In this document: piece after piece, positions 7,419-53,262 of the stretch
Numbering within the stretch: the first letter of the stretch is position 1
Layout of the letters: every line of letters starts with the position of its first letter
NCBI GenBank assembly: GCA_030834445.1
Contig: JAURFC010000002.1
Span: forward strand, 8,504-72,503
DNA: 64,000 bases
Reading direction: 5' to 3'
Source: Bacillota bacterium
GTDB lineage: Bacteria > Bacillota_I > Bacilli_A > RFN20 > CAG-826
The notes under the pieces: model-generated
What the model saw: the letters and a program-made list of their open reading frames with translations, nothing else
Told to the model about the DNA's origin: nothing
Database searches by the model: none
Made by a program: the position numbers and the translations under genes

Positions 7419-7946
7419 ATGAATGCTTCCATCAACGCATTATTAGTTCGTATTCAACAAGGGGAAGTCGAAGCGATGAATGAGTTATACTTGCAAACTA
7501 AGCGAGGTGTTTTTAGTTTTGTTTTGCCCTACCTTCGCGATATGCATCTTTGTGAAGACATCATGCAAGATACGTATGTGAAAATTTTTCAAAACATTCA
7601 ACAATTTCAACCCAAAACCAATGGCCTCAATTGGATGCTCACGATTGCAAAAAATACCGCATTAAATCTTATTAACGTTCGTCAACGCGAAGATTCTTTT
7701 GATACCCAAGAAATGAATGATGTCCTTGATGGCGGGCAAGATACATACGAATTTGATTCTCCCATTATTCAAAAAGCCAAAGCGCTTCTTCCTGAGGATG
7801 AAGCTCACATTGTTTTCTTATATGCGATTGGGGATTACAAACATCGCGAAATCGCCACCATGTTATCGTTACCGCTTGGCACCGTAACATGGAAATACAA
7901 CAAGGCGATGAAAACATTGAGGGAGGCGTTCCGTGATGAACAATAA
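7419..7946 (+). CDS. ECF-type RNA polymerase sigma-70 family factor
   Basis: 175 aa. Region 2 (DIMQDTYVKIF) and region 4 HTH (HREIATMLSLPLGTVTWKYNKAMKTLRE). Confidence 0.88.
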   Translation: MNASINALLVRIQQGEVEAMNELYLQTKRGVFSFVLPYLRDMHLCEDIMQDTYVKIFQNIQQFQPKTNGLNWMLTIAKNTALNLINVRQREDSFDTQEMNDVLDGGQDTYEFDSPIIQKAKALLPEDEAHIVFLYAIGDYKHREIATMLSLPLGTVTWKYNKAMKTLREAFRDEQ

Positions 7947-13615: not shown

Positions 13616-15586
13616 TTAATTTTTTAACTGGGCTTTGAGTTCGAAGATAACATCGCGAACTTCTGCGGCCCTTTCAAAGTCATATGCTTTTGCCGCCTCT
13701 TTCATAATTTTTTCAAATTCTTTAATACGATTTTCAATTTCAGAACGGGAGGCTTTACCTTCTACTAATCGAGTGACATCGGTTTCTTCATGCATACTGA
13801 GTGGCGAGATCACTTCTTTTTGAATCGTTTTCGGGGTAATACCAAACCGCTCATTGTAGGCTTGTTGAATTGCACGACGACGGTCCGTTTCTTGAATCGC
13901 GGCTTTCATCGAATCCGTTATCTTATCCGCATACATGATCACTTTTCCATTGGCATTGCGTGCCGCCCGACCGATAATTTGAATGAGGGAGCGGGTTGAA
14001 CGTAAAAAACCTTCTTTGTCTGCATCCAAAATGGTGATCAAAGATACTTCGGGAATATCGAGTCCTTCCCGTAATAAATTAATTCCAATGAGAACGTCAT
14101 ATTTACCTTTACGAAGTTGATAGATGACTTGAGCACGTTCTAATGTTTTCGTTTCTGCGTGCATGTAAACGACCTTCATACCCTTGTTTTTCAAATATGC
14201 GGTTAAATCTTCCGCCATTTTGATTGTCAAGGTGACCACCATCACGCGTTCGTTGGCGTCAACACGTTGGCGAATTTCTTGCATCAAATCATCAATTTGA
14301 CCCATGGTAGGACGAATAGAAATCGTTGGATCGACAAGTCCAGTGGGACGGATGATTTGTTCGACAACACGCTGTTCTGCCTGTGTGAGTTCATAATCTC
14401 CAGGCGTCGCTGAAGTACAAATGACATTAGGAAGGATGGCCTCAAATTCTAAAAACTTTAAGGGACGGTTATCCAACGCCGACGGTAAGCGGAATCCATA
14501 TTCAACCAGCGTTTCTTTTCGCGCACGATCTCCGTTATACATCCCCCGAACTTGAGGGAAACTTACGTGAGATTCATCCACAACAAGTAAGGCATCTTTC
14601 GGGAAGTAATCGAGTAAGCAAAAAGGACGAACACCGGGTTGACGTTGATCAATATGACGCGAATAGTTTTCAATACCCGGACACATGCCAAATTCACGTA
14701 AGGATTCTAAATCTTGTTTGGTTCGAAGCTCTAATCGTTGCGCCTCTAATAGTTTATTTTCTTGTTTGAAATACGTGAGACGTTCGTGTAATTCGGCTTC
14801 AATTGTTTCACATGCTTTTAACACCCGTTCATGCGTTGAGGCATGCCCATAGGCAGGATAAATCGCATAACTTTTATAACGGGCAACGGTCTCGCCAGTG
14901 ATGGTATCGATGAGGGCCATGGACTCAATTTCATCTCCAAACGTATCAATTCGTAAGGCTTTGTCTTCTAATCCTGGCACCGCAATTTCAATCACATCCC
15001 CACGAACACGAAAACCTCCTGGGGCAATGTCAAAGGGTTGACGTTCATATTGCGCATCGATGAGTTGTTTGAATAATTGTTTTCGGTCAATAGTTTCTCC
15101 CACACGCAAGTAAAACGCAAGACGTTGATATTCTTGGGGATCGGTTAAACCATAAATGGCGGCCACCGAAGCGACAACAATCGTATCTCGACGTTCCAAT
15201 AAACTGTTAATTGCTGAGGTACGCATCATTTCAATTTCATCATTCATCATCGCGTTTTTTTCGATGTATGTATCCGATTTTGGTAAGTAGGCTTCGGGTT
15301 GATAAAAATCAAAGTTACTAACGAAATATTCCACACGATTATGTGGGAATAGTTCCTTAAATTCCCCGTATAATTGCCCTGCCAGTGTTTTGTTATGCAC
15401 TAACACGAGGGTTGGTCGTTGTGTTTTTTCAATGACATTGGCAATGGTAAACGTTTTACCCGTTCCTGTCGCACCAAGAAGCACTTGAAAGCGTCGGTTT
15501 TCGTTTAAACCTTCTACGAGTTGTTGAATGGCTTTGGGTTGATCCCCTGTAGGTTGATACGGAGAGACAATTTTAAATGCCGGCAT
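13616..15586 (-). CDS. uvrB: Excinuclease ABC subunit B
   Basis: 656 aa. [17 protein letters not shown], helicase motifs and C-terminal UVR domain (FERAAEVRD). Confidence 0.97.
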
Positions 15587-16489
15587 TTAAGACTTCACCT
15601 TTCGTCGTTTCGGTAACGGGGAAACAGGAAATGGATCAAACCCCTCTCCATGAATGGAACGTGCTTGCGTGAAGATGACAAACGCTTTGGGATCAAGTGA
15701 TGATACCGCTTGTTTTAATGCATAATAATCATGACGAGCAATCGCGACTTGGATGACTTGGTAGGGTTGGTCGGTATAACCACCAATGGCAGGCAGAAGC
15801 GTTGATCCTCGTTCGAGTTGATGATGGATATAATCTAAGATAGGTTTGGTTTGATGGGAAATAATCGTGACCCAATACATCTTTGATCCACCGACAAAAA
15901 CGAGTTCAATGACGAGGGATGACATAACGGTTGAAATAATGCCAAATAATCCTTGATAGACCCCAAAGACAAGAAAACCCAAGCCAATAATGAGGACATC
16001 GACCCAAAAAGCGGTCGCAGAGGTGGTCCAATCAAACCATTTTTTACCCAATAACACAAGAACATCCACGCCCCCTGTGGATCCTCCTGCTAAAAACGCT
16101 AAAGCAACACCAAAACCAACTAATGCCCCTCCAAATAAACTAGCGAGGAGACGATGAATATCATTAGACGCTTCAAAGGCCAAGGCATCTATTCCGATAA
16201 ATCGAATAAAAATCACCACGAATAAAGGGTATGAAATCGTTGCAAATAATGTTTTAATTGAAAATGATTTTCCAAGGGTGACATAGCCTAGTAAAAAGAG
16301 TAACCAAGCAAAAATAGCGGTGGTGACATCCAAATCCCAACCCCATAACGCTTTAAAGATAATGGCAATCCCACTTAATCCGCCATTAACAATGTTTAAA
16401 GGCGCAAGAAAGAATGAAGTCCCTGATGCCAGTACAATGTTGGCAACGGCTAGTTGAAGTAAGGAAAGGAACCATGATTTACGAGCCAC
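15587..16489 (-). CDS. YitT family membrane protein (DUF2179 C-terminal domain)
   Basis: 300 aa, 5-6 TM followed by a soluble C-domain. The N-terminal FLAPLNIVNGGLSGIAII motif is characteristic of YitT proteins. Confidence 0.8.
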   Translation of the reverse strand: MARKSWFLSLLQLAVANIVLASGTSFFLAPLNIVNGGLSGIAIIFKALWGWDLDVTTAIFAWLLFLLGYVTLGKSFSIKTLFATISYPLFVVIFIRFIGIDALAFEASNDIHRLLASLFGGALVGFGVALAFLAGGSTGGVDVLVLLGKKWFDWTTSATAFWVDVLIIGLGFLVFGVYQGLFGIISTVMSSLVIELVFVGGSKMYWVTIISHQTKPILDYIHHQLERGSTLLPAIGGYTDQPYQVIQVAIARHDYYALKQAVSSLDPKAFVIFTQARSIHGEGFDPFPVSPLPKRRKVKS

Positions 16490-17589
16490 GTACTTTGGCC
16501 TCCTTTTCTAAATACGCTTGAATAAAACCAGAAATATCGCCATCCATCACCCGATTCACATCGCCTTCTTGATAGTTCGTGCGGTGATCTTTGACTAACG
16601 TATACGGTTGGAAAACATAGGAACGAATTTGACTGCCCCATTCTATATCTTTTTGTTCACCCACAATCGCATCCATCGCTTGTTGTTGTTCTTGTTTTTT
16701 TCGTTGATATAACTGGGCTTTTAACATATTCATTGCCATTTCTTTATTTTGGATCTGACTACGTTCAATCTGACACGATGCGACGAGACCCGTAGGAATG
16801 TGAGTAATGCGAACGGCACTTTCGACTTTATTAACGTTTTGCCCCCCAGCACCCCCCGAGCGATACGTATCAATGCGTAAATCTTTGTCGGGAATTTCTA
16901 GATCAATCGTATCTTGAATTTCGGGAATGACATTGACGGAGGCAAACGATGTATGGCGACGTCCATTCGCGTCAAACGGAGAGATGCGTACAAGACGATG
17001 GACGCCTTTTTCTGATTTGAGTAAGCCATAGGCATGAGGACCTTTAACAAGTAAAGTAACACTTTTAATGCCTGCTTCTTCACCGGCTTGATAATCAAGT
17101 ACTTGAATCGAAAATTTTTGCCATTCTGCGTACCGAACATACATACGATAAAGCATGTCTGCCCAATCATGGCTTTCCGTCCCTCCTGCACCAGGATGAA
17201 GTTCTAGAATCGCATTCAGCCCATCGAATTCTCCAGAAAAGAAGAGCAATTGACGCGCTTCATGCGCTTGTTTTTTTAAGTGATCCAGTTCGGTACGAAA
17301 ACTATCGTAAATGGAAGGATCATCTTCGAGGAGTTCAAAAAGTTCTTCGAGTTCTTTAAACCCGTTGACAATCGCATGATATTGTTCCCATTGATGACGC
17401 GCTTCATTAAGCTGTTGAACGACTTTTTTGGCCTTCCGTTGATCATCCCAAAAATGATCATCATTCATCTGGGCTTCGTCACGATCGATTTGTTGTTTTA
17501 CGCGAGCAGGGTCAAAGAGAATCACTGACTTGTTGAACGAGTAATTTCAAGTCATTTAACTCCGCTTTGATGAGGGAAAAATCAATCAT
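16479..17589 (-). CDS. prfB: Peptide chain release factor 2, requires programmed +1 frameshift
   Basis: Frame 0 runs from ATG 17589 (ATGA overlap with the secA stop) and encodes MIDFSLIKAELNDLKLLVQQVSDSL, then UGA. Shifting +1 at CUU UGA C continues DPARVKQQ... through SPF and GGQ motifs to 16479. Confidence 0.95.
17511..17517 (-). other. prfB: RF2 autoregulatory +1 frameshift site CUU UGA C
   Basis: The minus strand 17517-17511 reads CTTTGAC, the canonical RF2 shift heptamer. The downstream frame is the long RF2 ORF. Confidence 0.92.
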
Positions 17590-34561: not shown

Positions 34562-35238
34562 TAAAAATCAACTTGATTGAAGCGTTGTACGGTCATCGTG
34601 ACGGTTAAATTTCCATTACGTTCACGAATTTTATCAATGAATTGTTTTTGTTTGGTCGATTTTTTGATGACTACGCTATAAGAGATTTCAAAAAGTGTTC
34701 CAAAATCAATGGTTCTTACCCGGTTGAGTTGGGCTGAAAGGCAATATTCATTTAGTAAATCGTCAAATAGATTTTCATAGTTTAAACTTTCAGGTACGAT
34801 GATTCGTAAGGCAATGTTACGATCGGATGTCTTACCAAATTTCAACGAGAATAAAATGAGAATAATGCCCATCATAAACAAGGTAAAGACGGCAGCAAAC
34901 GCAACATAACCTGTCCCGGCAATGACACCAATGACCACGGTTAATAAGACATAGGCAATGTCTTCTGTGTTTCGTTGATTCGTTCGAAAACGTGTAAGCG
35001 CAAATAATCCCCCAACCGCAATCCCTGCGGCAAGATTGTTAGCAAGCATAATCATTAATACTGCGACGACAGGAGGCATCATGACCATCGTCCAAGGAAA
35101 GTCAGAAATAAAACCTTCGTCTCGCTTAATAAACATGTAAAAATAGGCCAAGATAATACCGAGTAAAACGGCAGATACCATGACGACTAACGTCACAGCA
35201 ACCAAATTGTCGAGCTGGGTATTTAAATTATCAAACAT
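34561..35238 (-). CDS. DUF4956 domain membrane protein
   Basis: 225 aa, 4 TM plus a C-terminal soluble domain. Sequence style and obligatory pairing with a VTC-domain gene match DUF4956. Confidence 0.7.
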   Translation of the reverse strand: MFDNLNTQLDNLVAVTLVVMVSAVLLGIILAYFYMFIKRDEGFISDFPWTMVMMPPVVAVLMIMLANNLAAGIAVGGLFALTRFRTNQRNTEDIAYVLLTVVIGVIAGTGYVAFAAVFTLFMMGIILILFSLKFGKTSDRNIALRIIVPESLNYENLFDDLLNEYCLSAQLNRVRTIDFGTLFEISYSVVIKKSTKQKQFIDKIRERNGNLTVTMTVQRFNQVDF

Positions 35239-35965
35239 CGTTACGAATCTCCTTTGCTAATTCAAGTTCATACGCTTTTCCATACTTAGAAAACGAATGA
35301 AGATAGATGTTGTGGCGACTTAGTGCTTTTGCAAACCATAAAGGCATCGCGTCCCCCACTTTGACTTCCATTAATACTTGATCTTCTTTGAGTAAAGAAA
35401 CACCGCGATCTGGGCTTTCAAAATCAAAATTGTCATATCTAGTATAAATGTTTTGATCAAAAGTCACTCTGAAATCTTCATCTTTTTTATCAAAAAATGC
35501 TAAACGATCATATTCAATGAAAACCGCTTTGTTGAGTTCATAAACTTGAGTCATGTAATGAAGTTCTTTTAATATTTGTTGTGAATAGTAATCCGTTCGA
35601 CTCGGAATTTCACCCTTAAGCATAAATTGATCAATTTCGGTCAATGTCATTGAAGCGCGACGTTTGGTCACAACGCCTTGAATTTTTCGTTTCACTTCAA
35701 GAAAAACCAAGTTCGTCCCATCGCCTTGAACACCATACTTACGAATCCGTAATTTTTCCTTGAAATCAGGTTTTAACAAGGAGATCGAGATGAGTTGATG
35801 ATCGATCGTATCGTAATAAACATTACGAAGATGATACGTATTTCCTTCTAAACAATAAGGATCATATTTCATGTGGCGACGAATGGTTTGTAAAAGCCCT
35901 TCGAATTGATGTCGGGTAATGACAAATTTTTTCTCGTACCGCTTAAAGACGTTGGTTTCAGCCAT
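35231..35965 (-). CDS. VTC domain protein (Vtc4-like polyphosphate polymerase / CYTH tunnel fold)
   Basis: MAETNVFKRYEKKFVI start (ExK-type motif), RIRKYG, and FLEVKRKIQGVVTKRR. ATG 35965 is preferred over the track start 36001. Confidence 0.75.
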   Translation of the reverse strand: MAETNVFKRYEKKFVITRHQFEGLLQTIRRHMKYDPYCLEGNTYHLRNVYYDTIDHQLISISLLKPDFKEKLRIRKYGVQGDGTNLVFLEVKRKIQGVVTKRRASMTLTEIDQFMLKGEIPSRTDYYSQQILKELHYMTQVYELNKAVFIEYDRLAFFDKKDEDFRVTFDQNIYTRYDNFDFESPDRGVSLLKEDQVLMEVKVGDAMPLWFAKALSRHNIYLHSFSKYGKAYELELAKEIRNDV

Positions 35966-36002
35966 ACATGTAGTGTAGCAAAAAAGAAAGTAAATGAACA
36001 TA

Positions 36003-36031
36003 TTGACCGAATTGGTCAGTCGCTCTATAAT
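36003..36031 (+). promoter_or_regulatory. TetR gene promoter (TTGACC-17-TATAAT) with operator-like inverted repeat TGACC-N5-GGTCA
   Basis: -35 at 36003-36008 and -10 at 36026-36031. IR at 36004-36018 overlaps the -35. ATG 36038 lies 7 nt after the -10, so the mRNA is leaderless or near-leaderless. Confidence 0.6.
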
Positions 36032-36037
36032 AGGAGT

Positions 36038-36568
36038 ATGTCCGCGAAACTTTCCATCATGAAATCCGCGATTGAAGTCTTTTCAACGTTGGGAATAAAG
36101 AAGGCAAGTATTGCCGATATTGCCCGGCATGCGGGAGTAAGTAAACCGCTTTTATTTCATCATTTCAAAACCAAAGCAGCATTGTATGAAGCGACGCGAA
36201 CATATGCACTTTCTCTCATTCAACATCTTCAAGACGCGTTCCATCAGAATCAAGGGCATTTCTTTGAGAAACTGTATGATCTCCAAATCGCAAAATATGA
36301 ACTTGAACTTGCCACACCTCATCTTTTCGAATTCATTCTCATCGACTTAGAAAAAGTGCCCGAACTCCCCCCTTATCCCTTTACCGAAAAAGATTTGGCG
36401 CTTTTTAAAGACGATGTAAATCCTCAATTTATTTATCAATGGTTTTACGTGATGTCCTTAGGATATCGGCAACGATTATTGGATGGGGCCGATGCTCCCA
36501 CCATTTTCCAAGAATTCCGTAAAGCTTTTGAATACATCAAACATATTTCCCTAAAGGAGGGTGATTAA
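36038..36568 (+). CDS. TetR/AcrR family transcriptional regulator
   Basis: HTH region KKASIADIARHAGVSKPLLFHHFKTK. The track's 5' extension to 35906 overlaps the divergent VTC gene and the promoter. Confidence 0.88.
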   Translation: MSAKLSIMKSAIEVFSTLGIKKASIADIARHAGVSKPLLFHHFKTKAALYEATRTYALSLIQHLQDAFHQNQGHFFEKLYDLQIAKYELELATPHLFEFILIDLEKVPELPPYPFTEKDLALFKDDVNPQFIYQWFYVMSLGYRQRLLDGADAPTIFQEFRKAFEYIKHISLKEGD

Positions 36569-38954: not shown

Positions 38955-39095
38955 ATGTTTGAACTTGATTGGTGGGTCTGGATACTCATCGCGGTCGCGG
39001 TCGTCGGTATTGGTTATTTAAAGCTCAAAGTCTTTAATGCCATGATCAAAAAGAAACCGAACAACCAACCTAATCCAGAAAACGACGAAGACTAG
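38955..39095 (+). CDS. Unannotated 46-aa single-pass membrane peptide
   Basis: ATG 38955 lies 3 nt after the permease stop. Encodes MFELDWWVWILIAVAVVGIGYLKLKVFNAMIKKKPNNQPNPENDED. Below the 60-aa ORF-track cutoff. Followed at once by a terminator. Confidence 0.5.
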   Translation: MFELDWWVWILIAVAVVGIGYLKLKVFNAMIKKKPNNQPNPENDED

Positions 39096-39114
39096 CACCC
39101 GAAAGGGTGCTTTT
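39095..39114 (+). terminator. Rho-independent terminator of the TetR/ABC operon
   Basis: GCACCC-gaaa-GGGTGC followed by TTTT. Confidence 0.8.
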
Positions 39115-39115
39115 C

Positions 39116-40117
39116 TTATCCGCGTTTGTACGGGGCAATCAAGTCGTGAGGATGATACTTTTTAACGAGCTGTAAATAAAAGTAAGGATTTAATAAGAGT
39201 TCTCGACCCAGATAAATAAGCGATATGCCTTGGCCCAATGCATCTTCGATTTGTTCGTAGGTCGTGACGAGGCCTCCCCCAATGGTAGGAATATCCTGCT
39301 TTTCAATCACCTTCGCAAAACCAAGTTGGTAACCTGGATACGATTGAATAGAAACAGGGACGGCACCACCACTACTCACATTAACGCCGACCACGTAAGG
39401 TTTAATAAGATTAATCACGCGAAGTGTTTCTTCCACATGATGACCGCCTTCGGCATATTCTTCCACCGATAATCGGACCCAGATAGCGCCATGAAATTTC
39501 GTGGATACTGCCTGTAAAATTTCAATTAAAAAACGCGTACGATTTTCGATGGATCCACCATATTCATCGGTTCGATGATTCGTTAATGGAGATAAAAACT
39601 GATTGATGAGGTACCCATGGGCCCCGTGAATTTCAACGCCATCAAATCCTGCTTGTTGAGCACGATGGGCAGCCAATCGGAAGTGATGAATGACGGTTTG
39701 AATATCTTCCTTTGTCATCGCTCGGGGCGTCCGGTGTTCAGGTGTAAACGGGATGGCCGATGAAGAAATGGCTTCTTGGGACATATCGCCTGATTTTTTT
39801 CCCGCATGAGCGAGTTGAATTGCAATTTTAGCGCCACCATGATGAACTGCGCTTACAAGTTGATGTAATCCGGCTAGTTGAGCATCATCATAAATACCTA
39901 AATCGTGAATCGAAATGCGACCCCGTGATTCGACCGCGGTGGCTTCGACAATGACTAAACTCACACCGCCATACGCACGGGCAGGATAATGCGCGAGATG
40001 AAACGGTTGTACGTGTCCTTCTTCGTTGGCACTATACATACACATCGGGGCCATGACAAGGCGATTTTTAAGCGAAAGAGAGCCCCATTGAAAAGGGGTA
40101 AAAAGTAAACCACTCAT
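39116..40117 (-). CDS. namA: NADPH dehydrogenase / Old Yellow Enzyme (YqjM/NamA type ene-reductase)
   Basis: LFTPFQWGSLSLKNRLVMAPMCMYSA matches the YqjM-type N-terminus. HGAHGYLINQFLSP and RTDEYGGSIENR motifs. Confidence 0.92.
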   Translation of the reverse strand: MSGLLFTPFQWGSLSLKNRLVMAPMCMYSANEEGHVQPFHLAHYPARAYGGVSLVIVEATAVESRGRISIHDLGIYDDAQLAGLHQLVSAVHHGGAKIAIQLAHAGKKSGDMSQEAISSSAIPFTPEHRTPRAMTKEDIQTVIHHFRLAAHRAQQAGFDGVEIHGAHGYLINQFLSPLTNHRTDEYGGSIENRTRFLIEILQAVSTKFHGAIWVRLSVEEYAEGGHHVEETLRVINLIKPYVVGVNVSSGGAVPVSIQSYPGYQLGFAKVIEKQDIPTIGGGLVTTYEQIEDALGQGISLIYLGRELLLNPYFYLQLVKKYHPHDLIAPYKRG

Positions 40118-41874
40118 CGGAAGAAACCAACATAGGCACCCATTGCAAAATTACGATAGTACCCATCAAAATAAATAAGTGATTGCACCCATATATCTAT
40201 CGAGAACGTTTCAAAAGTGAAGGAAATGAGTAAGTCTTCAGGGTCTTCTGCCGTGTAGTCTGCTTGTTGGATATCTTCACCGGGGAAATGCCGCTCTAAC
40301 AAAACGGCAATCATTTCCTCAAGAATACCAATCGTAACGGCTTCATCACCATACGTGATATTCCAATCAAGTTGTAAATCGGTTTCTTCCTCCATGGTCA
40401 GTGACATGGCGACGTTGTCGCTGGTATAGGGTGTTTCCACAAGATCCATGATTGAAGGCACAAATAAGAATGTTTCATAGTCAAAGGAGGAAAAATCTAA
40501 GATTTGATTCGATAAGGAAAAGTAATAATCCATAAATTCGACGATTGGATCATCGGTATATGTCCCAAAGGTCGTTGGAAAATCAGCGGGATGTTGATAC
40601 GATTCCGGAATGCCCGAAAAGGAAGCAAGACCAATTTCATTCATGGACGTGACAAGCGAAAAAAGTTGATTGTATTCCGCTTGTGTAAGGTCGTTTTTGA
40701 CCATCAATTCCCCTTCTTCATCGCGCATATCGAGCCGTTCAATCGCCGCGTTAAATTGCCCTTGTAAAATGAATCGGGCAATGCCAACCCCATTGACGAA
40801 AGGCATCACGGCCGCGAACACATAAATGCCCACAAGGGTTAATAAGGCCCGTTGGGTGGCTTGAGGATGTTTTTTGAGTACCCAAATCGCGTAACTGATC
40901 GGCCAAATTCCCATCAAAAGTTGTAGGACGATACCCATGGAAAATCCAAAGACAACCCCCACACGAATGAGTTCTACATAATAACCAAACATAATCACAA
41001 GTAAAACGATGGGGAAAAGGTTTTGGAAAAACTTTATTAAAGGATAACGTTCGACAAACCGACGGGTGGAGACATGCGTTGAAATCCCAGCAAAAGCAAT
41101 CACCAAGGTCGATAACGTATAAATTCCCGCGTTATATTGTTCACTTTGAAATAAACCGGTCAGCAAATAAATGACGATAAAGATCATGAACACACTGATG
41201 ACAGGCGCAAGCACAAATAGGAAGATACGTTCCCAGATAACGGAGTATGGTCCTTCTTCGAGTTTTTCGTTTCCTCGAGGAAAGCCATTCAACCACGTTG
41301 GAACAAAAACATAGGTAAGCGATAAGATAAGCACATTCGAGTAGACGGTAAAGGCAATCGATAAATTAAATAGAATATTCGTGCTCAATAAAATAATGGC
41401 GACACCGACAAAGAGGAATAAGGCATAAACAAGCGCGGTAAAAATAACATTAATGCCATCAATGATGGGTTTTTCAATCGCCTTATTCGCACGGAAATAT
41501 CGGATAAATAAAGGCAATAAATAAAACCCAAAAAGTAAATTTGAAAAGCGAAAAAAGCCCACGGCAAGATTCGCTTCGAGTTGCAACCAACCAAAATAAA
41601 GCCCGGTGAGAAGGATCACGGTGAGAATATCGATGATCTTCGACCAGCGCCACCACGAAAATGTTTCCCTTGTTAAGGTCACACTCAACGTTAATGGAAG
41701 AAAAATAAACAACGCTTGAGAGACATCGGTCAACCAATTCAGTTCAAGGTCTTCATTCAATACCATCAAAAATCCTAAAAGAAAGGAATAAATTAATGTG
41801 ACAGGAAAGCGTTGCCAACTTCCTTGCAATGGTTTTAATAAAAAGTTATTCAACCAGCGCTGAATCAAGTTCAT
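40114..41874 (-). CDS. Large polytopic membrane protein, DUF4153-like
   Basis: 586 aa. About 11 TM helices, then an acidic soluble C-domain of about 200 aa. N-terminal RFPVTLIYSFLL motif as I recall for DUF4153 proteins. Confidence 0.55.
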   Translation of the reverse strand: MNLIQRWLNNFLLKPLQGSWQRFPVTLIYSFLLGFLMVLNEDLELNWLTDVSQALFIFLPLTLSVTLTRETFSWWRWSKIIDILTVILLTGLYFGWLQLEANLAVGFFRFSNLLFGFYLLPLFIRYFRANKAIEKPIIDGINVIFTALVYALFLFVGVAIILLSTNILFNLSIAFTVYSNVLILSLTYVFVPTWLNGFPRGNEKLEEGPYSVIWERIFLFVLAPVISVFMIFIVIYLLTGLFQSEQYNAGIYTLSTLVIAFAGISTHVSTRRFVERYPLIKFFQNLFPIVLLVIMFGYYVELIRVGVVFGFSMGIVLQLLMGIWPISYAIWVLKKHPQATQRALLTLVGIYVFAAVMPFVNGVGIARFILQGQFNAAIERLDMRDEEGELMVKNDLTQAEYNQLFSLVTSMNEIGLASFSGIPESYQHPADFPTTFGTYTDDPIVEFMDYYFSLSNQILDFSSFDYETFLFVPSIMDLVETPYTSDNVAMSLTMEEETDLQLDWNITYGDEAVTIGILEEMIAVLLERHFPGEDIQQADYTAEDPEDLLISFTFETFSIDIWVQSLIYFDGYYRNFAMGAYVGFFR

Positions 41875-42419
41875 CGATTTCTACCTCCTGAGGAATGAGA
41901 TGAAGCGGCAGCAGCCCCAGCAGCAGCTTGCCGACGCTTATCATCAATAAAGTCATCAATCATTAGCACAACACTCACAGCAAGGGCCTCATCAAAGCCA
42001 TCTTCAATGGCAATTTGATAAGTGTCTCCCCAGGCTAAAAACTTCTTTTGAATTTGAACCACGGTACCATTTTCATCGGCAATTCGATAATTATAGCCAA
42101 AGAAATCGCCTTGAATTTCATATTTTTTCCCTTGAATTAAGAGGTTAAATCGTACCCCAAAAAAGGCAAGAAGTTGTTGGGCAAGCTTTGCAACAACGGC
42201 ATTCTGACGATCGTATAAAAAATAAGTAGGAACAAAGGTTAAAACTTTTTGTCGAATCGAATAAATGGGAGTGAGATCTCCGACTTTAAAAATATCTTTA
42301 TGACTATGCATCGAAAAGAATTTCCCTTTTGCCTCATACAAGACATTTTGAACTTCATCATACACTTTGTATTCATCCCGAATGGCGAATACTTTTTGCT
42401 TAAGATAAACATATTTCAT
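41871..42419 (-). CDS. LURP-one-related (DUF567, tubby/scramblase-like fold) protein
   Basis: 182 aa. MKYVYLKQKVFAIRDEYKVYDE... repeated beta-hairpin pattern and a C-terminal helix typical of the LOR family. Ala/Ser/Gly-rich tail. Confidence 0.65.
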   Translation of the reverse strand: MKYVYLKQKVFAIRDEYKVYDEVQNVLYEAKGKFFSMHSHKDIFKVGDLTPIYSIRQKVLTFVPTYFLYDRQNAVVAKLAQQLLAFFGVRFNLLIQGKKYEIQGDFFGYNYRIADENGTVVQIQKKFLAWGDTYQIAIEDGFDEALAVSVVLMIDDFIDDKRRQAAAGAAAASSHSSGGRNR

Positions 42420-43357
42420 GCGATAAATTCCTCCACATGATCAATAAATAAATCAAAAAAGGTATCAAAAGGAAGATGACCCGCATTGGGTATCATGACA
42501 AGACGGGTATTGTCTCCCAAACTTTGTAAGAGTAATTCCCCGGTGGCAAGGGGAATAAATCCATCAAATTCACCCCAAAGTAGCATGATCGGTTGCGTGA
42601 TTGTATCGAATATTTCTTGCATATTTTGCGAATCATTATCCTCACCAAATTGTTTAAGAATATCCGGTGGAATCGTACGATTGACGACATACATTTCATC
42701 AAAATCTTCATTCGTGATAAGCCCATTATTCCGTTCGTATTCTGAGTACGCGGTAAAAAAGAAGGCACGTTGAATGTAATAGTTTTGAACCACTTCTTTG
42801 TACATGAAAAGAGGTAAGCTGGGGGGATTGGTCATCGCGCCTTCCGGATAATATCCTGCAGACCCGACCAACATAAGTTGGGAAATTTTTTCAGGGGCAA
42901 GATGGGTAAGGTGAAAGGAAACTTCCCCTCCCATGGAATGGGCCATCAAGGTAATATCGTTTAATTGCTTAACTTCAATAAATTCAAGCACCGTTCGCGC
43001 TTGATTTTCTTTACCATAATCATAATCACGAGGTTTACTCGATAGTCCAAAACCTATTAAATCAACCGCGATGACGTGATGGGTGGTTTTAAAATATTCA
43101 AATACGTGAATAAAATCATAACTTGATCCTAAAAATCCATGAACGAAAAGCATCACGGGTGCATTGGCATCCCCAGCTTCGCGGTAAAAAATGGTGCGCT
43201 CTTCATCAAGTTGAAGTTCCTTGGCATACGCTTCGTAAACGTATTGACGTGTTTGTATGATCTCTGAGGTTTTTAACCCCGAAGCAGTCCAAAATCCCAC
43301 CGTGATAAAATAAAGCGTTAAGGCGATGATACGCCCCCATTTTATTTTCTTTTTCAT
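42416..43357 (-). CDS. Membrane-anchored alpha/beta hydrolase
   Basis: N-terminal TM helix, HGFLGS oxyanion region, nucleophile elbow AHSMGG, and C-terminal GH. Confidence 0.85.
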   Translation of the reverse strand: MKKKIKWGRIIALTLYFITVGFWTASGLKTSEIIQTRQYVYEAYAKELQLDEERTIFYREAGDANAPVMLFVHGFLGSSYDFIHVFEYFKTTHHVIAVDLIGFGLSSKPRDYDYGKENQARTVLEFIEVKQLNDITLMAHSMGGEVSFHLTHLAPEKISQLMLVGSAGYYPEGAMTNPPSLPLFMYKEVVQNYYIQRAFFFTAYSEYERNNGLITNEDFDEMYVVNRTIPPDILKQFGEDNDSQNMQEIFDTITQPIMLLWGEFDGFIPLATGELLLQSLGDNTRLVMIPNAGHLPFDTFFDLFIDHVEEFIA

Positions 43358-44307: not shown

Positions 44308-44338
44308 AAAAAAAGCTAAGGGATTCCCTTAGCTTTTA
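44308..44338 (-). terminator. Strong hairpin/T-tract between the heliorhodopsin gene and the downstream operon
   Basis: AGCTAAGGG-att-CCCTTAGCT (44314-44334). On the minus strand it is followed by T7 that runs directly into ATG 44307. Confidence 0.8.
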
Positions 44339-44363: not shown

Positions 44364-45188
44364 TTAGGAAGGTTGGAAGGCACCGAAGAGGACGAGCCAG
44401 GTTAAGATGGTTTTTGCAACTAACGATAAGATGATATAACCACGTTCACCGACAAGATAGTCTTTAAATCTACCCACGCCTAAGTATTGTAAAAGCATGT
44501 TAACGGGGAAGGTGTTGAAGGCAATGAAATAGGTGGCTAAAATCGCCCAAACGAAAACTGGAACGGCATCTAAGTTGGGGTTCACCCCAATGTAGAAGGC
44601 AATGGCAACCCAAGGAGCAAGACCAACGATGGTCCCAAAAATAAAGGGTAACCAGTTGATTTTCTTACCGACTTTGGATTCGCCTGCGTTGAGTAATTCC
44701 ATATCTAAACCGAAGAAGTTCATCGCCGCATTCGCTAACGCGATTAAGGCAAAGACGGCCACATCGCGAACACCAAATAACGAAGAAATTAACACGATCA
44801 TTAAGGATGACGATAACGCATATTCATACCAACGGAATTGGTTGATACCGACACGTAAACCTTCACGATATTTCTTCTTGAAAGGAAAGGCGATAAGGAA
44901 GTGGAATAAAGCCGATAAAAGCAAGAAACTTGCAGTTAATGGTAAGAAAGGTAACTGAAATAACGTGTCTGTGACGGTTAACACTAACCCTTCACCTGGA
45001 ACGAACTCAAGGTAATTACCGATGACATCGATATTAAAGGCCCCTTGTTCGGAAATACTGGGATACACAAAGAAGGCAAATGCCATCATGAGAACCCCTT
45101 GGATTAAGTGAACAAGACCCATGGTTTTGTTAAAACCAAGGAGTTTGTCTACTTTTTGGTCGAACGACAATTCAACTTTTGCGCTCAT
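44364..45188 (-). CDS. Heliorhodopsin
   Basis: 7 TM. FRWYEYALSSSLMIVLIS and GERGYIILSLVAKTILTW match recalled HeR-48C12 segments FRWVEYSLSSSVMIVLIA and GERAYIVLSLVAKSALAW. Lys codon at 44412-44414. ATG 45188 has SD aaggag 5 nt upstream (spacer atttt), so the track start 45209 is rejected. Confidence 0.9.
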   Translation of the reverse strand: MSAKVELSFDQKVDKLLGFNKTMGLVHLIQGVLMMAFAFFVYPSISEQGAFNIDVIGNYLEFVPGEGLVLTVTDTLFQLPFLPLTASFLLLSALFHFLIAFPFKKKYREGLRVGINQFRWYEYALSSSLMIVLISSLFGVRDVAVFALIALANAAMNFFGLDMELLNAGESKVGKKINWLPFIFGTIVGLAPWVAIAFYIGVNPNLDAVPVFVWAILATYFIAFNTFPVNMLLQYLGVGRFKDYLVGERGYIILSLVAKTILTWLVLFGAFQPS

Positions 45189-45256
45189 AAAATCTCCTTT
45201 TTTCACCATAATTGGTAATATTAGTATAAATCCGATGATAAAAAGTGAGGCGAAAA

Positions 45257-45892
45257 ATGCTTATGATTCATAAATACATTCCAGGAACCAATCCGCGACG
45301 CCCTACTCTAGTGCTTTTTCATGGAACAGGGGGGAATGAAAACGACCTATTAAGCATTGCGCAAATGATTGATCATGAGGCGAGTGTTTTAGCATTGCGG
45401 GGTGATGTAAGCGAGTTTGGGATGAACCGTTTTTTCAAACGTTTAGCAGAAGGCGTCTTTGATTATAACGATATCTGCATGCGTGTCGATTCACTTGATG
45501 CATTTTTGAATAAAGCGTGTGAGCAATATCAGTTGGATCGCCAGGATCTCCTGGGTGTTGGTTATTCGAATGGCGCAAATATGATTGCCCAAATGATGTT
45601 AAAAAAACCGATGAGTTTTCGCCAGGCAATCTTAATGCATCCGATGGATATCGACCCCAAAGTCATCCCTACACCGATCGAGGATGTAGATATTTTAGTG
45701 ACCGCAGGGACCGAAGACCCCATTGTTACGCAAGCGCAAACCAATCAACTTGTCCACCGTTTTCAAACACAAAAAGCAACCGTCGAATTAGCCTGGTTTA
45801 AACACGGACATCAACTCTCAAGTGATGAAATCCAAACCGTGATAAAATGGTATCAGAAGCACATTATTGATCCGGAACAATTCCGTGATTAA
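45257..45892 (+). CDS. Phospholipase/carboxylesterase family alpha/beta hydrolase
   Basis: LVLFHGTGGNENDL, nucleophile GYSNGAN, and C-terminal HGH. SD gagg 6 nt before ATG 45257. Confidence 0.85.
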   Translation: MLMIHKYIPGTNPRRPTLVLFHGTGGNENDLLSIAQMIDHEASVLALRGDVSEFGMNRFFKRLAEGVFDYNDICMRVDSLDAFLNKACEQYQLDRQDLLGVGYSNGANMIAQMMLKKPMSFRQAILMHPMDIDPKVIPTPIEDVDILVTAGTEDPIVTQAQTNQLVHRFQTQKATVELAWFKHGHQLSSDEIQTVIKWYQKHIIDPEQFRD

Positions 45893-45901
45893 GGAGGAAA
45901 T

Positions 45902-46315
45902 ATGGGCCCATTATTAGGATTTATTACCGTCTTTTTTATCGCGATGAGTATGACACGAAAACTCGTTCAACTCACGCTAGCATCCGTGTTCAAGCGCAAT
46001 AAGCTTGAGGATAAGAAAACGTCACTTGATTTGAAAGTGTTATTATTTTTGCAAAAAAACCATCGCTACTTTGGCATCCTTGCCCTTTTGAGCGCGGTGG
46101 CCCATGCCGCCCTTCAATTCTCAATCACCGGTTCCCCGAGTTTAACGGGAGGAACCCTAATTGGTTTATTAGCAACCCAAGGGATAACGGGTTATTTACA
46201 AGAACAAAAAAAGGGCAACATTCGTGTTTTGAATAAAATTCACGAAACATTACCCTTCATCATGGTCGCCCTTATCATCGCGCACATCATTTTGAATTCA
46301 TCGATTCCGCTATAA
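45902..46315 (+). CDS. Small 4-TM membrane protein with His in TM2 and TM4 (cytochrome-b-like guess)
   Basis: 137 aa. Contains ALLSAVAHAALQF and MVALIIAHIIL. SD aaggagg upstream. No family recognised with certainty. Confidence 0.5.
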   Translation: MGPLLGFITVFFIAMSMTRKLVQLTLASVFKRNKLEDKKTSLDLKVLLFLQKNHRYFGILALLSAVAHAALQFSITGSPSLTGGTLIGLLATQGITGYLQEQKKGNIRVLNKIHETLPFIMVALIIAHIILNSSIPL

Positions 46316-47152
46316 TTATTTTTTAGGAAGCCTCGGTAAAAAAATCGAGGTGCGTTTCGCATAGGCTGCAAAATCAGGATGGTTAACCATCCTTTTTTCT
46401 AACAAAGGAACGCCTGATAAATACCGAAGTAAAAATGTGACCACAAGCGCGGAAAAAATGGCGATGAAAGGCAACCATGGCACGGAGATGATAAATCCAT
46501 TACCAAAACCCATGATCGTAATACCCCACCACATAAAAACTTCCCCGACATAATTTGGGTGCCGCGTGAGTGCCCACAATCCGGTGGTTATAAGTTTGCC
46601 TTTGTTTTCCGGATTCTTTTTAAAGCTGGCTAACTGAGCATCTCCAACCGCTTGAAAATAAAACCCAACCATCCACACGAAAAGTCCCCCTAACAAGGGA
46701 CCATACATCCACGGTTCAATCAAATTTCCTGACACCATAATATTGGCAATCAAAACCCACGCAATCAGAAACATAAAGAGGGCTTGGACAAGAAAAATTT
46801 TCACAAACCCTTTTAGTTTTCGCCACGGAGGTTGAATTTTTGCCCGCATCGCAACATAGCGATAATCTTCAGGCTTACCTTCATTTCGTCGGCGAATATG
46901 GGTAGATAAACGCACGCCCCAAATCGTTGTAACGAGTACAGTGATTAACGAAAGGAAATTACTATTCACGCCAAGAAGCTGGGTCCGAATAAGGATGAGT
47001 GACCAGGCAATCCAAACAAACCCAAGACCCCAACCAACATCAATGATTCCATAATTATTTTTCGCTTCTGCTTTAAAAAAATAAAAGGTGAAATGCAAAA
47101 GGATCACACTGACGGTGATGACAAGTCCCGTTAAGATTAAAAGGCCAATCAT
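46316..47152 (-). CDS. DUF1295 / steroid 5-alpha-reductase-like membrane protein
   Basis: TGLWALTRHPNYVGEVFMWWG motif. Start taken at ATG 47152 (ATGA overlap with the DUF2177 stop); ATG 47176 is an alternative. Confidence 0.75.
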   Translation of the reverse strand: MIGLLILTGLVITVSVILLHFTFYFFKAEAKNNYGIIDVGWGLGFVWIAWSLILIRTQLLGVNSNFLSLITVLVTTIWGVRLSTHIRRRNEGKPEDYRYVAMRAKIQPPWRKLKGFVKIFLVQALFMFLIAWVLIANIMVSGNLIEPWMYGPLLGGLFVWMVGFYFQAVGDAQLASFKKNPENKGKLITTGLWALTRHPNYVGEVFMWWGITIMGFGNGFIISVPWLPFIAIFSALVVTFLLRYLSGVPLLEKRMVNHPDFAAYAKRTSIFLPRLPKK

Positions 47153-47544
47153 AAACCGAAAACCCCCATGAGCCATAACGTAATCACGGTAGAAACACCC
47201 GTTAAGAATGTCCCCCACACTAAATCAATGACAGTGATTTTTACCGGCCATGCTTTAAGCGTCGCCAAGTTTGTTAAATCATAGGTTGCATACGTGACGA
47301 GTCCAAATAAACTCCCCAATAGCCACCCTTCAAAAATATTTCCTTTCGCAGGCAGAAGGACAAAAACAACAAGTCCGACATGATATAAGACATAAAATAG
47401 TAACGCACCGATCCGATTGACTTTTTCGGCCATGAGATGGCCAATATGGCGACGATAAAGTTGGGGTGCCACTTTAACGAGCCAAAATAAATCTAATACC
47501 GTGAAGACAAGTGCACTCAATAGAAAGGTGAAAAAAATATTCAT
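47149..47544 (-). CDS. DUF2177 family membrane protein
   Basis: 131 aa, 4 TM. N-terminal FTVLDLFWL and YDLTNLATLKAWP motifs as recalled for DUF2177. Confidence 0.6.
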   Translation of the reverse strand: MNIFFTFLLSALVFTVLDLFWLVKVAPQLYRRHIGHLMAEKVNRIGALLFYVLYHVGLVVFVLLPAKGNIFEGWLLGSLFGLVTYATYDLTNLATLKAWPVKITVIDLVWGTFLTGVSTVITLWLMGVFGL

Positions 47545-52112: not shown

Positions 52113-52712
52113 ATGCCATTTGAATTACCACGTCTTGCTTATGCGTATGATGCGTTAGAACCTGTGATCGACGCGAAAACCATGGAAATCCATCACACAA
52201 AGCATCACCAAGCTTATATTACCAATGCCAACAACACCCTTGCAAAGTTCCCTGAATTTGCCGCATTGGATGTAGCCACTTTACTTTCAAAGTTGGAAAC
52301 TCTCCCCAAAGAAATTCAAGGTCCGATTCGTAATAATGCCGGAGGTCACTATAACCATAGTTTGTTTTGGCAATGCTTATTACCAGTCGCTGACTATAAA
52401 GCACCTTCAGCGCGACTTGCTCAACTCATCGATGCCTCGTTTGGAACCTTCGATGCCTTTAAAGAACAATTCGCAAACGCCGCGAAAACGCGGTTTGGTT
52501 CCGGTTGGGCTTGGTTGGTCCTTACCAAAGAGGGTCAACTTAAAGTCACTTCCAGCCCGAACCAAGATACACCATTGAATGAAGGGAAACCTTTGCTTGG
52601 ATTAGATGTCTGGGAACATGCTTATTATTTAAATTATCAAAATCGTCGTCCTGATTACGTTAGTGCTTTCTTTAGCATCATCAATTGGGCGTTTGTCGAA
52701 TCCTTACTCTAA
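52113..52712 (+). CDS. sodA: Fe/Mn superoxide dismutase
   Basis: [25 protein letters not shown] and DVWEHAYYL motifs. SD aaggag. Confidence 0.96.
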
Positions 52713-52719
52713 AAAGCTT

Positions 52720-53262
52720 ATGGCCTACGAAGCTCCTCTCTTTGAAAAAATACTGGAAGAAGGAGCTTTTTCTATTCGTCGTTATCCGTTTTTTAAAACC
52801 GTGGTGATGCATCATTCCAGCTGGGATGGTTATTCCGGCTTCAACGATTTATTTAATTATATTTCCGGTCAAAACAAACAACGGCAAGCGATGAAAATGA
52901 CAGTGCCTGTCATTAACGATGTCCAACGCGATCAACTTAGCATGGAATTTGTTGTACCCGCTCAATTTTACGACAACACCCCCGAACCTTCGGTGAATTA
53001 TTTGTCCTTAAAAACTTATGAAAATATGCACCTAGGGGTCATTCATTTTCGTGGCAATCCGAGTCGAATGCTCATCGAAAAACATTATCAAAGCCTGTTG
53101 GAGTGGCTCCAACAAAAAGGGTATCAACCCTCGCCTTCATATTTTGTAGCGCGTTACAACGCCCCGTTTATGCCGGGATTATTTAAACACAATGAAATTT
53201 GGATTAGGCTCGACACTTTTGACAAAGACCATAAAACCGTAGTTGATGATAGACAATCTTAA
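52720..53262 (+). CDS. SOUL heme-binding family protein
   Basis: MAYEAPLFEKILEEGAFSIRRYP start typical of the SOUL/HBP family. ATG 52720 lies 7 nt after the sodA stop. The 3' end overlaps the convergent Fur-family gene by 59 bp. Confidence 0.75.
   Translation: MAYEAPLFEKILEEGAFSIRRYPFFKTVVMHHSSWDGYSGFNDLFNYISGQNKQRQAMKMTVPVINDVQRDQLSMEFVVPAQFYDNTPEPSVNYLSLKTYENMHLGVIHFRGNPSRMLIEKHYQSLLEWLQQKGYQPSPSYFVARYNAPFMPGLFKHNEIWIRLDTFDKDHKTVVDDRQS

Follow-up and report, generated by a model that had tools for sequence, protein, structure and literature searches.

A Bacillota heliorhodopsin gene that probably heads an attenuated operon with a tocopherol cyclase-like gene

Introduction

Does a bacterial heliorhodopsin (HeR) act by itself, or does it work with the products of the genes beside it? 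The heliorhodopsin family has been known since 2018 and its physiology is still unsettled. The question is raised by an open reading frame (ORF) at positions 44364–45188 of a 64,000-nucleotide stretch of DNA from a Bacillota bacterium (GTDB lineage Bacteria; Bacillota_I; Bacilli_A; RFN20; CAG-826), which is contig JAURFC010000002.1 of GenBank assembly GCA_030834445.1, positions 8,504 to 72,503 of the forward strand, and is referred to here as the window. A reading made from the sequence alone had called this ORF an intact heliorhodopsin photoreceptor gene with its own Shine-Dalgarno sequence and its own terminator. We find that the heliorhodopsin is genuine, that its gene is strongly linked to a downstream gene of the tocopherol cyclase family (TocCyc-like gene), and that it probably belongs to an operon with this gene.

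The sequence-only reading had also stated that heliorhodopsins have no settled physiological function, which is broadly fair, although for other HeRs there are reports of regulatory action on glutamine synthetase, on photolyase and on an ABC transporter, as well as of proton transport by a viral HeR. Bulzu et al. argued that HeRs of monoderms are sensors that lessen the oxidative stress caused by light, and Cho et al. distinguished ten HeR operon groups, including alpha/beta-hydrolase and DUF2177 groups, with one HeR shown to regulate an ABC transporter. In their statements on gene neighbourhoods, Chazan et al. (2021) include SOUL, photolyase and tocopherol cyclase among the HeR neighbours and name DUF2177, DegV and DUF1295 as the most characteristic ones, mostly in Firmicutes (including Tenericutes) and Chloroflexi; there, blh is described as rare in HeR genomes and an unidentified retinal route is suspected. 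For most HeRs, a 2025 preprint proposes a fenestration at which xanthophylls of exogenous origin bind. On a mechanism that would connect HeR with tocopherol cyclase, literature searches gave nothing beyond what Chazan et al. state on neighbour enrichment.

Results

Identity, gene start and fold of the heliorhodopsin

The ORF at 44364–45188 is an intact, genuine heliorhodopsin with K259 as the retinal Schiff-base lysine. PF18761 is the sole Pfam family matched (E = 5.7e-82, 275.1 bits against a cut-off of 26.7, profile positions 3–241 of 242), with no report of Bacterial_rhodopsin (PF01036) in the same search, and the NCBIfam equivalog model NF038020 ('heliorhodopsin HeR') scores 251.9 bits (cut-off 100). 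A phmmer search of the PDB returned heliorhodopsins only (E = 4.8e-49 to 4.2e-39), among them Cv06 (9VFC, 4.8e-49), HeR-48C12 (6SU3, 4.5e-40) and TaHeR (6IS6, 1.7e-39). Profile search, structure matches and aligned key residues thus uphold the earlier gene call and place the protein with the heliorhodopsins and not with the type-1 rhodopsins; membership of the latter, or of no rhodopsin family, is ruled out by Pfam, NCBIfam, PDB and Foldseek alike, and of the refuting outcomes named with the earlier call, none that could be checked in silico was observed.

The positions of 48C12 that Kovalev et al. name as structurally important were mapped onto the protein via the HMMER alignment. Conserved are N16, H23, Q26, S76, H80, Y92, N101, R104, W105, E107, Y108, S111, N138, E149, P172, W173, Q216, Y226, E230, S237, K241 and W246 (48C12 numbering). 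The Schiff-base lysine K259 in transmembrane helix 7 (TM7) corresponds to K241, the single counter-ion E122 in TM3 to E107, and H27 and H96 to H23 and H80, so that the TM7 lysine, the glutamate and both histidines line up as the sequence-only reading had expected; S255 corresponds to S237, at the position of the second aspartate of type-1 rhodopsins. All five residues are invariant among 36 members of the clade. The polar Schiff-base cavity is identical to that of 48C12 (H27, H96, N20, Y107, N116, R119, Y123, E164 and E248), with H27, H96, N116, R119, Y123, E164 and E248 forming a polar cavity on the cytoplasmic side. The retinal pocket differs from 48C12 at I142 (N157 here), L202 (Y220) and Q213 (M231), with N138 retained as N153. 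Subfamily 8 of Kovalev et al. is bacterial, with Tyr at 202, Asn at 142 and Asn138 kept (48C12 numbering), and the N157/Y220/M231 signature fits this subfamily, an assignment made by signature alone.

On the minus strand, reading may begin at ATG 45209 (281 aa) or ATG 45188 (274 aa) and ends at a stop codon at 44366–44364. The start at ATG 45188 was chosen because the AAAGGAG Shine-Dalgarno sequence would lie within the longer extension and because homologues start at the aligned position: in the aligned upstream regions of 14 related loci, the GGAG and start codon of the relatives coincide with 45188, and homologues are mostly 274–276 aa long, beginning at the matching ATG. The 281-aa start is less likely on the same two grounds. 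The earlier numbering of the key residues (H34, H103, E129 and K266) is right in the 281-aa frame and becomes H27, H96, E122 and K259 in the 274-aa protein. The motifs quoted with it (VHLIQ, LSALFHF, FRWYEYALSSSLMIVLI and GERGYIILSLVAK) each occur verbatim in the ORF translation, and the lysine codon, counted from the sequence, lies at 44412–44414 as claimed. Further upstream, in the 56-bp divergent intergenic region, TATACT matches the invariant TATAAT of loci L002–L013 in the upstream-region alignment and is a candidate conserved −10 box of the HeR promoter, with a weak −35; the consensus promoter scan did not list this promoter, which emerged from the upstream alignment alone.

An AlphaFold2 (AF2) model built from a shallow alignment is of low confidence (predicted local distance difference test, pLDDT, 62). 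Its secondary structure, as assigned by DSSP, nevertheless bears out the seven transmembrane helices of the earlier reading (residues 9–45, 81–100, 119–137, 143–165, 179–202, 211–235 and 244–270), and two strands (52–63 and 67–80) form a beta-hairpin in the AB loop. The top ten Foldseek matches to this model are all heliorhodopsins (TM-score 0.69–0.82, E about 1e-10 to 1e-13), and matches to type-1 rhodopsins have E > 0.01. With the AF2 helix bounds, Lys and Arg total 11 on one side of the membrane (N-tail 1, BC loop 5, DE 3, FG 2) versus 1 on the opposite side (AB 0, CD 1, EF 0, C-terminus 0). The positive-inside rule thus predicts the inverted, N-in/C-out topology that had been proposed.

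Linkage to a tocopherol cyclase-like gene

ORFs were labelled in 85 related loci, the contigs being covered with 10 kb on either flank. In about 30 related loci the TocCyc-like gene adjoins HeR, in both gene orders (Table 1). The pairing holds in every one of the 14 loci (L001–L013 and L083) that share the gene order of the window and extend beyond HeR, occurs also in metagenome-assembled genomes (MAGs) of Acholeplasmataceae and in Peloplasma, and is found from the other direction as well, with HeR adjacent to five of six sampled TocCyc-like genes. In the cultured Acholeplasma laidlawii (LS483439.1; L084, 10001–11876), the TocCyc-like gene directly precedes HeR, and the two products are 49% and 56% identical, respectively, to the window proteins. 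The linkage is strong and, given the exceptions weighed in the Discussion, not obligatory.

Table 1. Gene order around HeR in the window and its relatives (> and <, gene direction)
Group	Gene order
Window type (L001–L013, L083)	DUF2177> DUF1295> cytochrome b-like< MhqD< HeR> TocCyc> alpha/beta hydrolase> LOR> 586-aa protein> OYE>
Acholeplasmataceae	DUF2177> DUF1295> Phr< CrtB< CrtI< HeR> TocCyc> Phr> DPRP>
Peloplasma aerotolerans	Phr< HeR> TocCyc>
Acholeplasma laidlawii	TocCyc> HeR> (order reversed)
Izemoplasmatales	DUF2177< Phr< DUF1295< HeR>

The wider neighbourhoods of the relatives have a light or oxidative character, with crtI-family, phytoene-synthase-like, photolyase, DASH cryptochrome, DPRP, DUF2177 and DUF1295 genes. 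In the Acholeplasmataceae locus L081, two neighbours score above their model cut-offs, a DASH cryptochrome with 428 bits (cut-off 317) and a crtI-family desaturase with 433 bits (cut-off 238); a phytoene-synthase-like protein and a class-2-like photolyase are encoded there too. In two further loci, sampled from large contigs (L086 and L087), HeR again lies beside the TocCyc-like gene, and a DUF92 (PF01940) gene (within L086, 101–1595, and L087, 50–1517) lies beside crtB, crtI and the HeR/TocCyc pair; the gene next to DUF92 has a weak CTP_transf_1 (PF01148) match in L086, and its counterpart in L087 is without a Pfam match. CTP_transf_1 and DUF92 are the families of the plant phytol kinase VTE5 and phytyl-phosphate kinase VTE6. 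Counting the VTE1-like cyclase, three families resembling those of the tocopherol pathway thus stand together in a single locus of mollicutes that do not photosynthesize.

Terminator and probable operon architecture

HeR is probably not a stand-alone unit but the gene nearest the promoter in an operon that contains an attenuating terminator. Its stop codon is separated from the ATG of the TocCyc-like gene by 56 nt, which end in a hairpin (stem GCTAAGGG/CCCTTAGC, 44333..44315; 12 pairs, −15.9 kcal/mol) followed by seven T residues (T7), and this T-run touches ATG 44307. A hairpin with a T-run occurs at the same place between HeR and TocCyc in 26 of 29 related loci that were folded (L001–L020, L027, L031, L034, L081–L083 and L085). 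The stems differ in sequence (GCTAAGG in the Bacilli group, GACTAAG in Acholeplasmataceae, GCTAG in Peloplasma) and yet the hairpin is kept; therefore it is the structure itself that is conserved. In Acholeplasmataceae an AGGAG follows the T-run; in the window group the T-run stands directly at the ATG, and a Shine-Dalgarno sequence cannot be seen.

Downstream, the five genes that follow HeR, opened by the TocCyc-like gene, overlap successively by 4 nt, and a consensus scan of the minus strand gave no sigma-70-like match from 45188 to 43354. Membership of HeR in the operon is thus probable because the T-run abuts ATG 44307, because there is no room for a promoter and because the HeR/TocCyc adjacency is kept. 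The terminator of the sequence-only reading is accordingly real as a hairpin with T7, but misleading as the mark of a stand-alone gene, as it abuts the next ATG, the downstream genes overlap by 4 nt and the adjacency is conserved.

Beyond the TocCyc-like gene the string encodes an alpha/beta hydrolase, probably membrane-anchored through a hydrophobic N-terminal stretch, a LURP-one-related (LOR) protein, a probably polytopic 586-aa protein and an old yellow enzyme (OYE), the gene of which is the last of the co-directional string; this closes at a hairpin at 39094–39111 (Table 2). The 586-aa protein has no Pfam match even at E = 1 and none in NCBIfam. A search of 1.84 billion proteins gave just 162 representative clusters (E ≤ 1e-3), almost all of them 560–610 aa long, and the protein evolves fast, with 35–38% identity between loci where HeR is 85–90% identical.

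Table 2. Features of the heliorhodopsin locus (positions in the window)
Feature	Position	Strand	Evidence and remarks
OYE/NamA-like FMN oxidoreductase	39116..40117	−	Oxidored_FMN 1.9e-77; NamA 390.8 bits, cut-off 431
586-aa protein, many hydrophobic stretches	40114..41874	−	no Pfam or NCBIfam family
LOR protein (PF04525), 182 aa	41871..42419	−	Pfam 1.1e-12; synteny; 4-nt overlaps on either side
Alpha/beta hydrolase	42416..43357	−	Abhydrolase_1 2.4e-29; synteny in L001–L013, L018, L083; 4-nt overlap with TocCyc-like gene
Tocopherol cyclase-family (PF14249) gene, 317 aa	43354..44307	−	Pfam 2.2e-20; AF2; Foldseek; synteny
Intrinsic-terminator-like hairpin and T7	44308..44337	−	stem 44333–44326/44322–44315, loop AAT; T7 44314–44308
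Heliorhodopsin coding sequence, 274 aa	44364..45188	−	PF18761; NF038020; PDB matches; residue map; dN/dS
Codon of K259	44412–44414	−	
Codon of S255	44424–44426	−	
Codon of E122	44823–44825	−	
Codon of H96	44901–44903	−	
Codon of H27	45108–45110	−	
HeR Shine-Dalgarno sequence AAAGGAG	45200..45194	−	read from sequence; 5-nt spacer to ATG 45188
Candidate −10 box TATACT of HeR	45228..45223	−	in 56-bp divergent intergenic region; −35 weak
MhqD-like carboxylesterase	45245–45892	+	NCBIfam MhqD 172 bits, below cut-off 325; Pfam DLH
Small cytochrome b561-like membrane protein	45902–46315	+	Pfam Ni_hydr_CYTB
DUF1295 membrane protein	46316–47218	−	Pfam (DUF2177/DUF1295 pair: 3.1e-40 and 7.4e-58)
DUF2177 membrane protein	47149–47544	−	Pfam (same pair of values)

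The tocopherol cyclase-like enzyme

The TocCyc-like protein scores 73.4 bits against PF14249 (cut-off 26.6), over residues 129–315 only, and its homologues are named 'tocopherol cyclase family protein' by several sources; it has no sequence relative in the PDB and no NCBIfam match. Its AF2 model (pLDDT 93.7) is an all-beta double barrel, for which Foldseek lists as relatives the Diels-Alderases Fsa2, Phm7 and CghA, AttH (2ICH), kievitone hydratase and a 25-phosphosteroid lyase (E 2e-10 to 4e-7). The side chains bound by these enzymes are of prenyl, polyene or steroid type, and protonation or hydration of a C=C bond is catalysed by several of them. Either a prenylquinol or a carotenoid end group would be a substrate in keeping with the modelled fold, which does not decide between them. 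Tocopherol cyclase proper (VTE1) closes the chromanol ring on a prenylquinol and works together with the other pathway enzymes (VTE2 to VTE4); Pfam scans of the window ORFs showed no homogentisate prenyltransferase and no tocopherol methyltransferase.

Selection and distribution

HeR is the slowest-evolving gene of its locus and is under strong purifying selection. Against contig L001, which shares 94% DNA identity with the window across 14.5 kb, its dN/dS is 0.046; against L002 its dN is 0.11, and that of all ten neighbouring genes 0.25–0.66. Within this clade HeR thus changes about three times more slowly than any gene around it. Its conservation is about equal to that of NrdE (88% for both). 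The proportion of synonymous differences (pS) against L002 is about 0.7 and equally saturated in HeR and its neighbours; therefore the conservation does not stem from a recent horizontal transfer, and the GC content at the locus is likewise unremarkable. A pseudogene or relic is excluded by the intact ORF, the dN/dS of about 0.05 and the invariant key residues.

A word-indexed search returned 3,755 homologous proteins at E ≤ 1e-20, the best 120 of which all share at least 79% identity with the window HeR. A 99%-identical protein is present in NCBI, JGI, ENA and Logan, including an NCBI Bacilli MAG. Among contigs sampled at one genome per species, the closest is 'MAG: Bacilli bacterium YM.12', followed by freshwater Bacilli and Bacillota MAGs and then by Acholeplasmataceae, Izemoplasmatales and Clostridia; Bacilli, Bacillota, Acholeplasmataceae and Izemoplasmatales are monoderm lineages. 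HeR therefore belongs to a well-populated clade already catalogued in freshwater Bacilli and relatives of Acholeplasma. The gene call adds no new kind, as there are a curated NCBI model, a 99%-identical public protein and published typical neighbours for the clade (tocopherol cyclase, DUF2177, DUF1295, SOUL and alpha/beta hydrolase).

Two observations on the related loci may be recorded. The HeR locus of the freshwater Bacilli, with unchanged synteny, is found in MAGs labelled 'Staphylococcus epidermidis' or 'uncultured Staphylococcus sp.' (L009, L011 and L013), labels that are probably wrong. In a Bacilli MAG (L040, 6556–7639) the match to HeR is 1,084 nt long, where about 820 nt is usual, and falls into three ORF pieces, and this gene may be disrupted or frameshifted, or reflect an assembly error.

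Other genes of the window

The MhqD-like and cytochrome b561-like genes form a pair that diverges from HeR and is syntenic in 14–17 loci, and DUF2177 and DUF1295 occur near HeR in 23–24 of the 85 related loci. Beyond these two lie NrdIFE, superoxide dismutase (SOD), a SOUL protein, Fur and a zinc/manganese ABC system; the oxidative context of the window comprises the MhqD-like esterase, the NamA-like OYE, SOD, SOUL, NrdEFI, Fur and MsrB. No DegV gene is present in the window. The glutamine synthetase gene at 9213–10547 lies 35 kb off and is unlinked, so that a connection as in the actinobacterial HeR-glutamine synthetase operons was rejected.

Of the 66 window ORFs of at least 120 aa, 62 were searched against Pfam (the remaining four are nested in longer ORFs), and the largest ORF-free gap is at most 430 bp. 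This search found no SQS_PSY, Amino_oxidase/CrtI, lycopene cyclase, Blh or RPE65 in the 64 kb, in agreement with the earlier statement that crt and blh genes are absent and extending it to RPE65. An Rfam search of the whole window at gathering thresholds returned no structured RNA.

Several side observations concern the annotation of other genes. Three pairs of ORF calls overlap by 50–96 nt (DUF1295/DUF2177, 46316–47218 and 47149–47544; SOUL/SOD, 52113–52712 and 52663–53262; TetR/VTC, 35231–36001 and 35906–36568), and for DUF1295, SOUL and TetR the called start, a GTG or TTG, probably lies too far upstream. In the release factor 2 gene prfB, CTT TGA C marks the well-known site of programmed +1 frameshifting (17509–17588, minus strand); its 25-codon ORF0, from ATG 17588, overlaps the secA stop (ATGA), and the listed ORF at 16479–17525 is the post-shift part only. 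At 7419–9144 (plus strand), a gene for an extracytoplasmic function (ECF)-type sigma factor overlaps a 403-aa ORF without a family, which may encode the anti-sigma factor; a Y-family polymerase gene (5725–6990) and uvrB (13616–15586) lie nearby.

Discussion

Proposed role and rival explanations

We infer that HeR most likely senses light in connection with photoprotection that involves isoprenoids or quinones. Taken as a whole, it appears fairly probable that HeR heads an attenuated operon with a light-dependent output on membrane isoprenoid, quinone or lipid chemistry. By analogy with characterized heliorhodopsins, the protein would bind all-trans-retinal, take up green light without pumping ions and form a long-lived photo-intermediate, which would signal through altered contacts with partner proteins. 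The gene would be transcribed from the conserved promoter in the 56-bp divergent region as the first of HeR, TocCyc-like, alpha/beta hydrolase, LOR, 586-aa protein and OYE genes, and the hairpin with T7 would let only a fraction of transcripts through, giving much HeR and little enzyme. The prime candidate for a partner would be the cytoplasmic TocCyc-like enzyme, with its fold of enzymes acting on prenyl or polyene substrates, and the output, judging from the conserved neighbourhoods, may be a light-dependent protection or remodelling of the membrane isoprenoids, quinones or lipids. Retinal would be supplied by uptake from outside or by an unidentified pathway elsewhere in the genome, since the window encodes no source.

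Several points weigh against this picture. The 12-pair hairpin with T7 is a strong terminator at which most transcripts may end, and the TocCyc-like gene of the window is without a visible Shine-Dalgarno sequence. In Acholeplasma granularum a TocCyc-like gene is followed by an alpha/beta hydrolase gene with no HeR within 5 kb, and HeRs of 73–80% identity stand in unrelated contexts with no TocCyc-like gene nearby (L021–L039, L041–L043 and L061); judging by these HeRs and by A. granularum, each of the two genes can do without the other beside it. In addition, no retinal source lies within the 64-kb window, and the structure model of HeR is poor. The terminator and the exceptions to the pairing are also what speaks for a stand-alone photoreceptor, that is, a monocistronic gene with its own terminator, in which the neighbours are only a conserved syntenic block without a functional tie and HeR acts through unlinked partners or through an intrinsic activity in the Schiff-base cavity, as suggested by Kovalev et al.; moreover, most of the more distant HeR loci (36–56% identity) are without any labelled neighbour. 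We consider this rather unlikely, as the HeR/TocCyc adjacency persists over HeR identities from 52% to 99%, through the swapped gene order in A. laidlawii and through the complete replacement of the other neighbours (crtI/crtB/photolyase versus MhqD/cytochrome b-like), and as the terminator abuts the next ATG and leaves no space for a promoter.

A more novel reading is that the TocCyc-like enzyme is the dedicated partner of this heliorhodopsin clade, either as a light-controlled effector, with photo-activated HeR switching on an antioxidant reaction on membrane lipids or an isoprenoid-modifying one, or as the missing enzyme of chromophore or antenna supply, cyclizing or hydrating an acyclic carotenoid end group made by the CrtB and CrtI encoded next to it in the relatives. 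We regard these two versions, taken together, as quite unlikely. If the former were true, it would give a concrete physiological output for the HeRs of wall-less, low-GC monoderms; the latter, if true, would help to explain the pigment source of HeR carriers that are without blh. As the pair is present in cultured A. laidlawii, either version is therefore testable in a cultured organism.

The supply function may also be read on its own, with the enzyme cyclizing or hydrating an end group of acyclic carotenoids or of a retinal precursor, so as to furnish the HeR chromophore or a xanthophyll antenna where blh is lacking, and with HeR serving as a two-chromophore light harvester. The crtI-family and phytoene-synthase-like genes beside the HeR/TocCyc pair in Acholeplasmataceae, where neither lycopene cyclase nor blh was recognized, point in this direction, as do the Foldseek grouping of the enzyme with kievitone hydratase and AttH, the proposed carotenoid-fenestration motif in HeR (F182, T186, G189, F224, N225 and P228) and the rarity of blh, with a suspected further retinal pathway, in HeR genomes. 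It is nonetheless very unlikely to apply here: the lineage of the window is without crt genes at the locus or in the 64 kb, no candidate for a cleavage oxygenase was seen, the operon partners are hydrolases and an OYE instead of carotenoid enzymes, Pfam places the enzyme with tocopherol cyclase and not with CrtC, and the idea of a carotenoid antenna is based on docking in a preprint. Hardly credible is a light-driven or light-gated ion transporter such as the giant-virus V2HeR3. Neither 48C12 nor TaHeR is known to transport ions. Proton transport is reported for one viral HeR, but the window protein has the standard non-transporting bacterial residue set, with a cavity identical to 48C12, and fits the bacterial subfamily 8 signature, not that of viral subfamily 2, which is without the fenestration.

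What is new here is that this HeR is probably not stand-alone, that the tightness of its tie to the TocCyc-like gene has been measured and that the pair is present in a culturable organism. The value of the locus lies in a clean example of tight HeR/TocCyc-like linkage that is kept through changes of gene order and replacement of neighbours. For a family of unsettled physiology, the linkage names a specific partner, one that is also found in culturable A. laidlawii.

Comparison with known systems

Among characterized heliorhodopsins, HeR-48C12 (from an actinobacterial fosmid; PDB 6SU3 and 6UH3) is 40% identical over 245 aligned residues and shares the Schiff-base Lys, the counter-ion Glu, the Ser237 analogue, both His, the Arg104/Glu149/Glu230 cluster, the Pro172 pi-bulge and the dimer residues D127 and Y179; it differs in that the AB loop of the window HeR is 12 residues longer, the host is Bacilli/Mollicutes-like instead of actinobacterial and the gene context is another one. 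TaHeR from a Thermoplasmatales archaeon (6IS6) is the best Foldseek match (TM-score 0.76/0.82, 35% identity) and also has Met at the Q213 position, but is archaeal and has a shorter AB loop. The best-scoring solved structure, ahead of the bacterial 48C12, is Cv06 of Chromera velia (9VFC, 41.5% identity), which has the same FNTFP sequence where the carotenoid fenestration has been proposed and likewise a long AB loop, whereas it is eukaryotic, 317 aa long and carries an extra 9-residue insertion in the FG loop and an N-terminal extension. These likenesses may hint that Cv06 is related to the bacterial HeR clade of the window.

The nearest relatives in context are the HeRs of Acholeplasmataceae and other mollicutes that have a tocopherol cyclase gene beside them (Chazan et al. 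2021, legend of Fig. S10; A. laidlawii and Peloplasma aerotolerans), which belong to the same clade (52–83% identity) and share the HeR/TocCyc-like pairing, the nearby DUF2177–DUF1295 genes and the hairpin between HeR and TocCyc. They have crtI, crtB and photolyase genes where the window has the MhqD-like esterase and cytochrome b-like genes, whereas the window adds the alpha/beta hydrolase, LOR, 586-aa protein and OYE genes downstream. Finally, in the actinobacterial regulatory HeRs studied by the Jung laboratory (acting on glutamine synthetase, photolyase and the OmrDE ABC transporter), HeR likewise lies in an operon with the protein that it would modulate; in the present locus, the candidate for this partner is instead the TocCyc-like enzyme.

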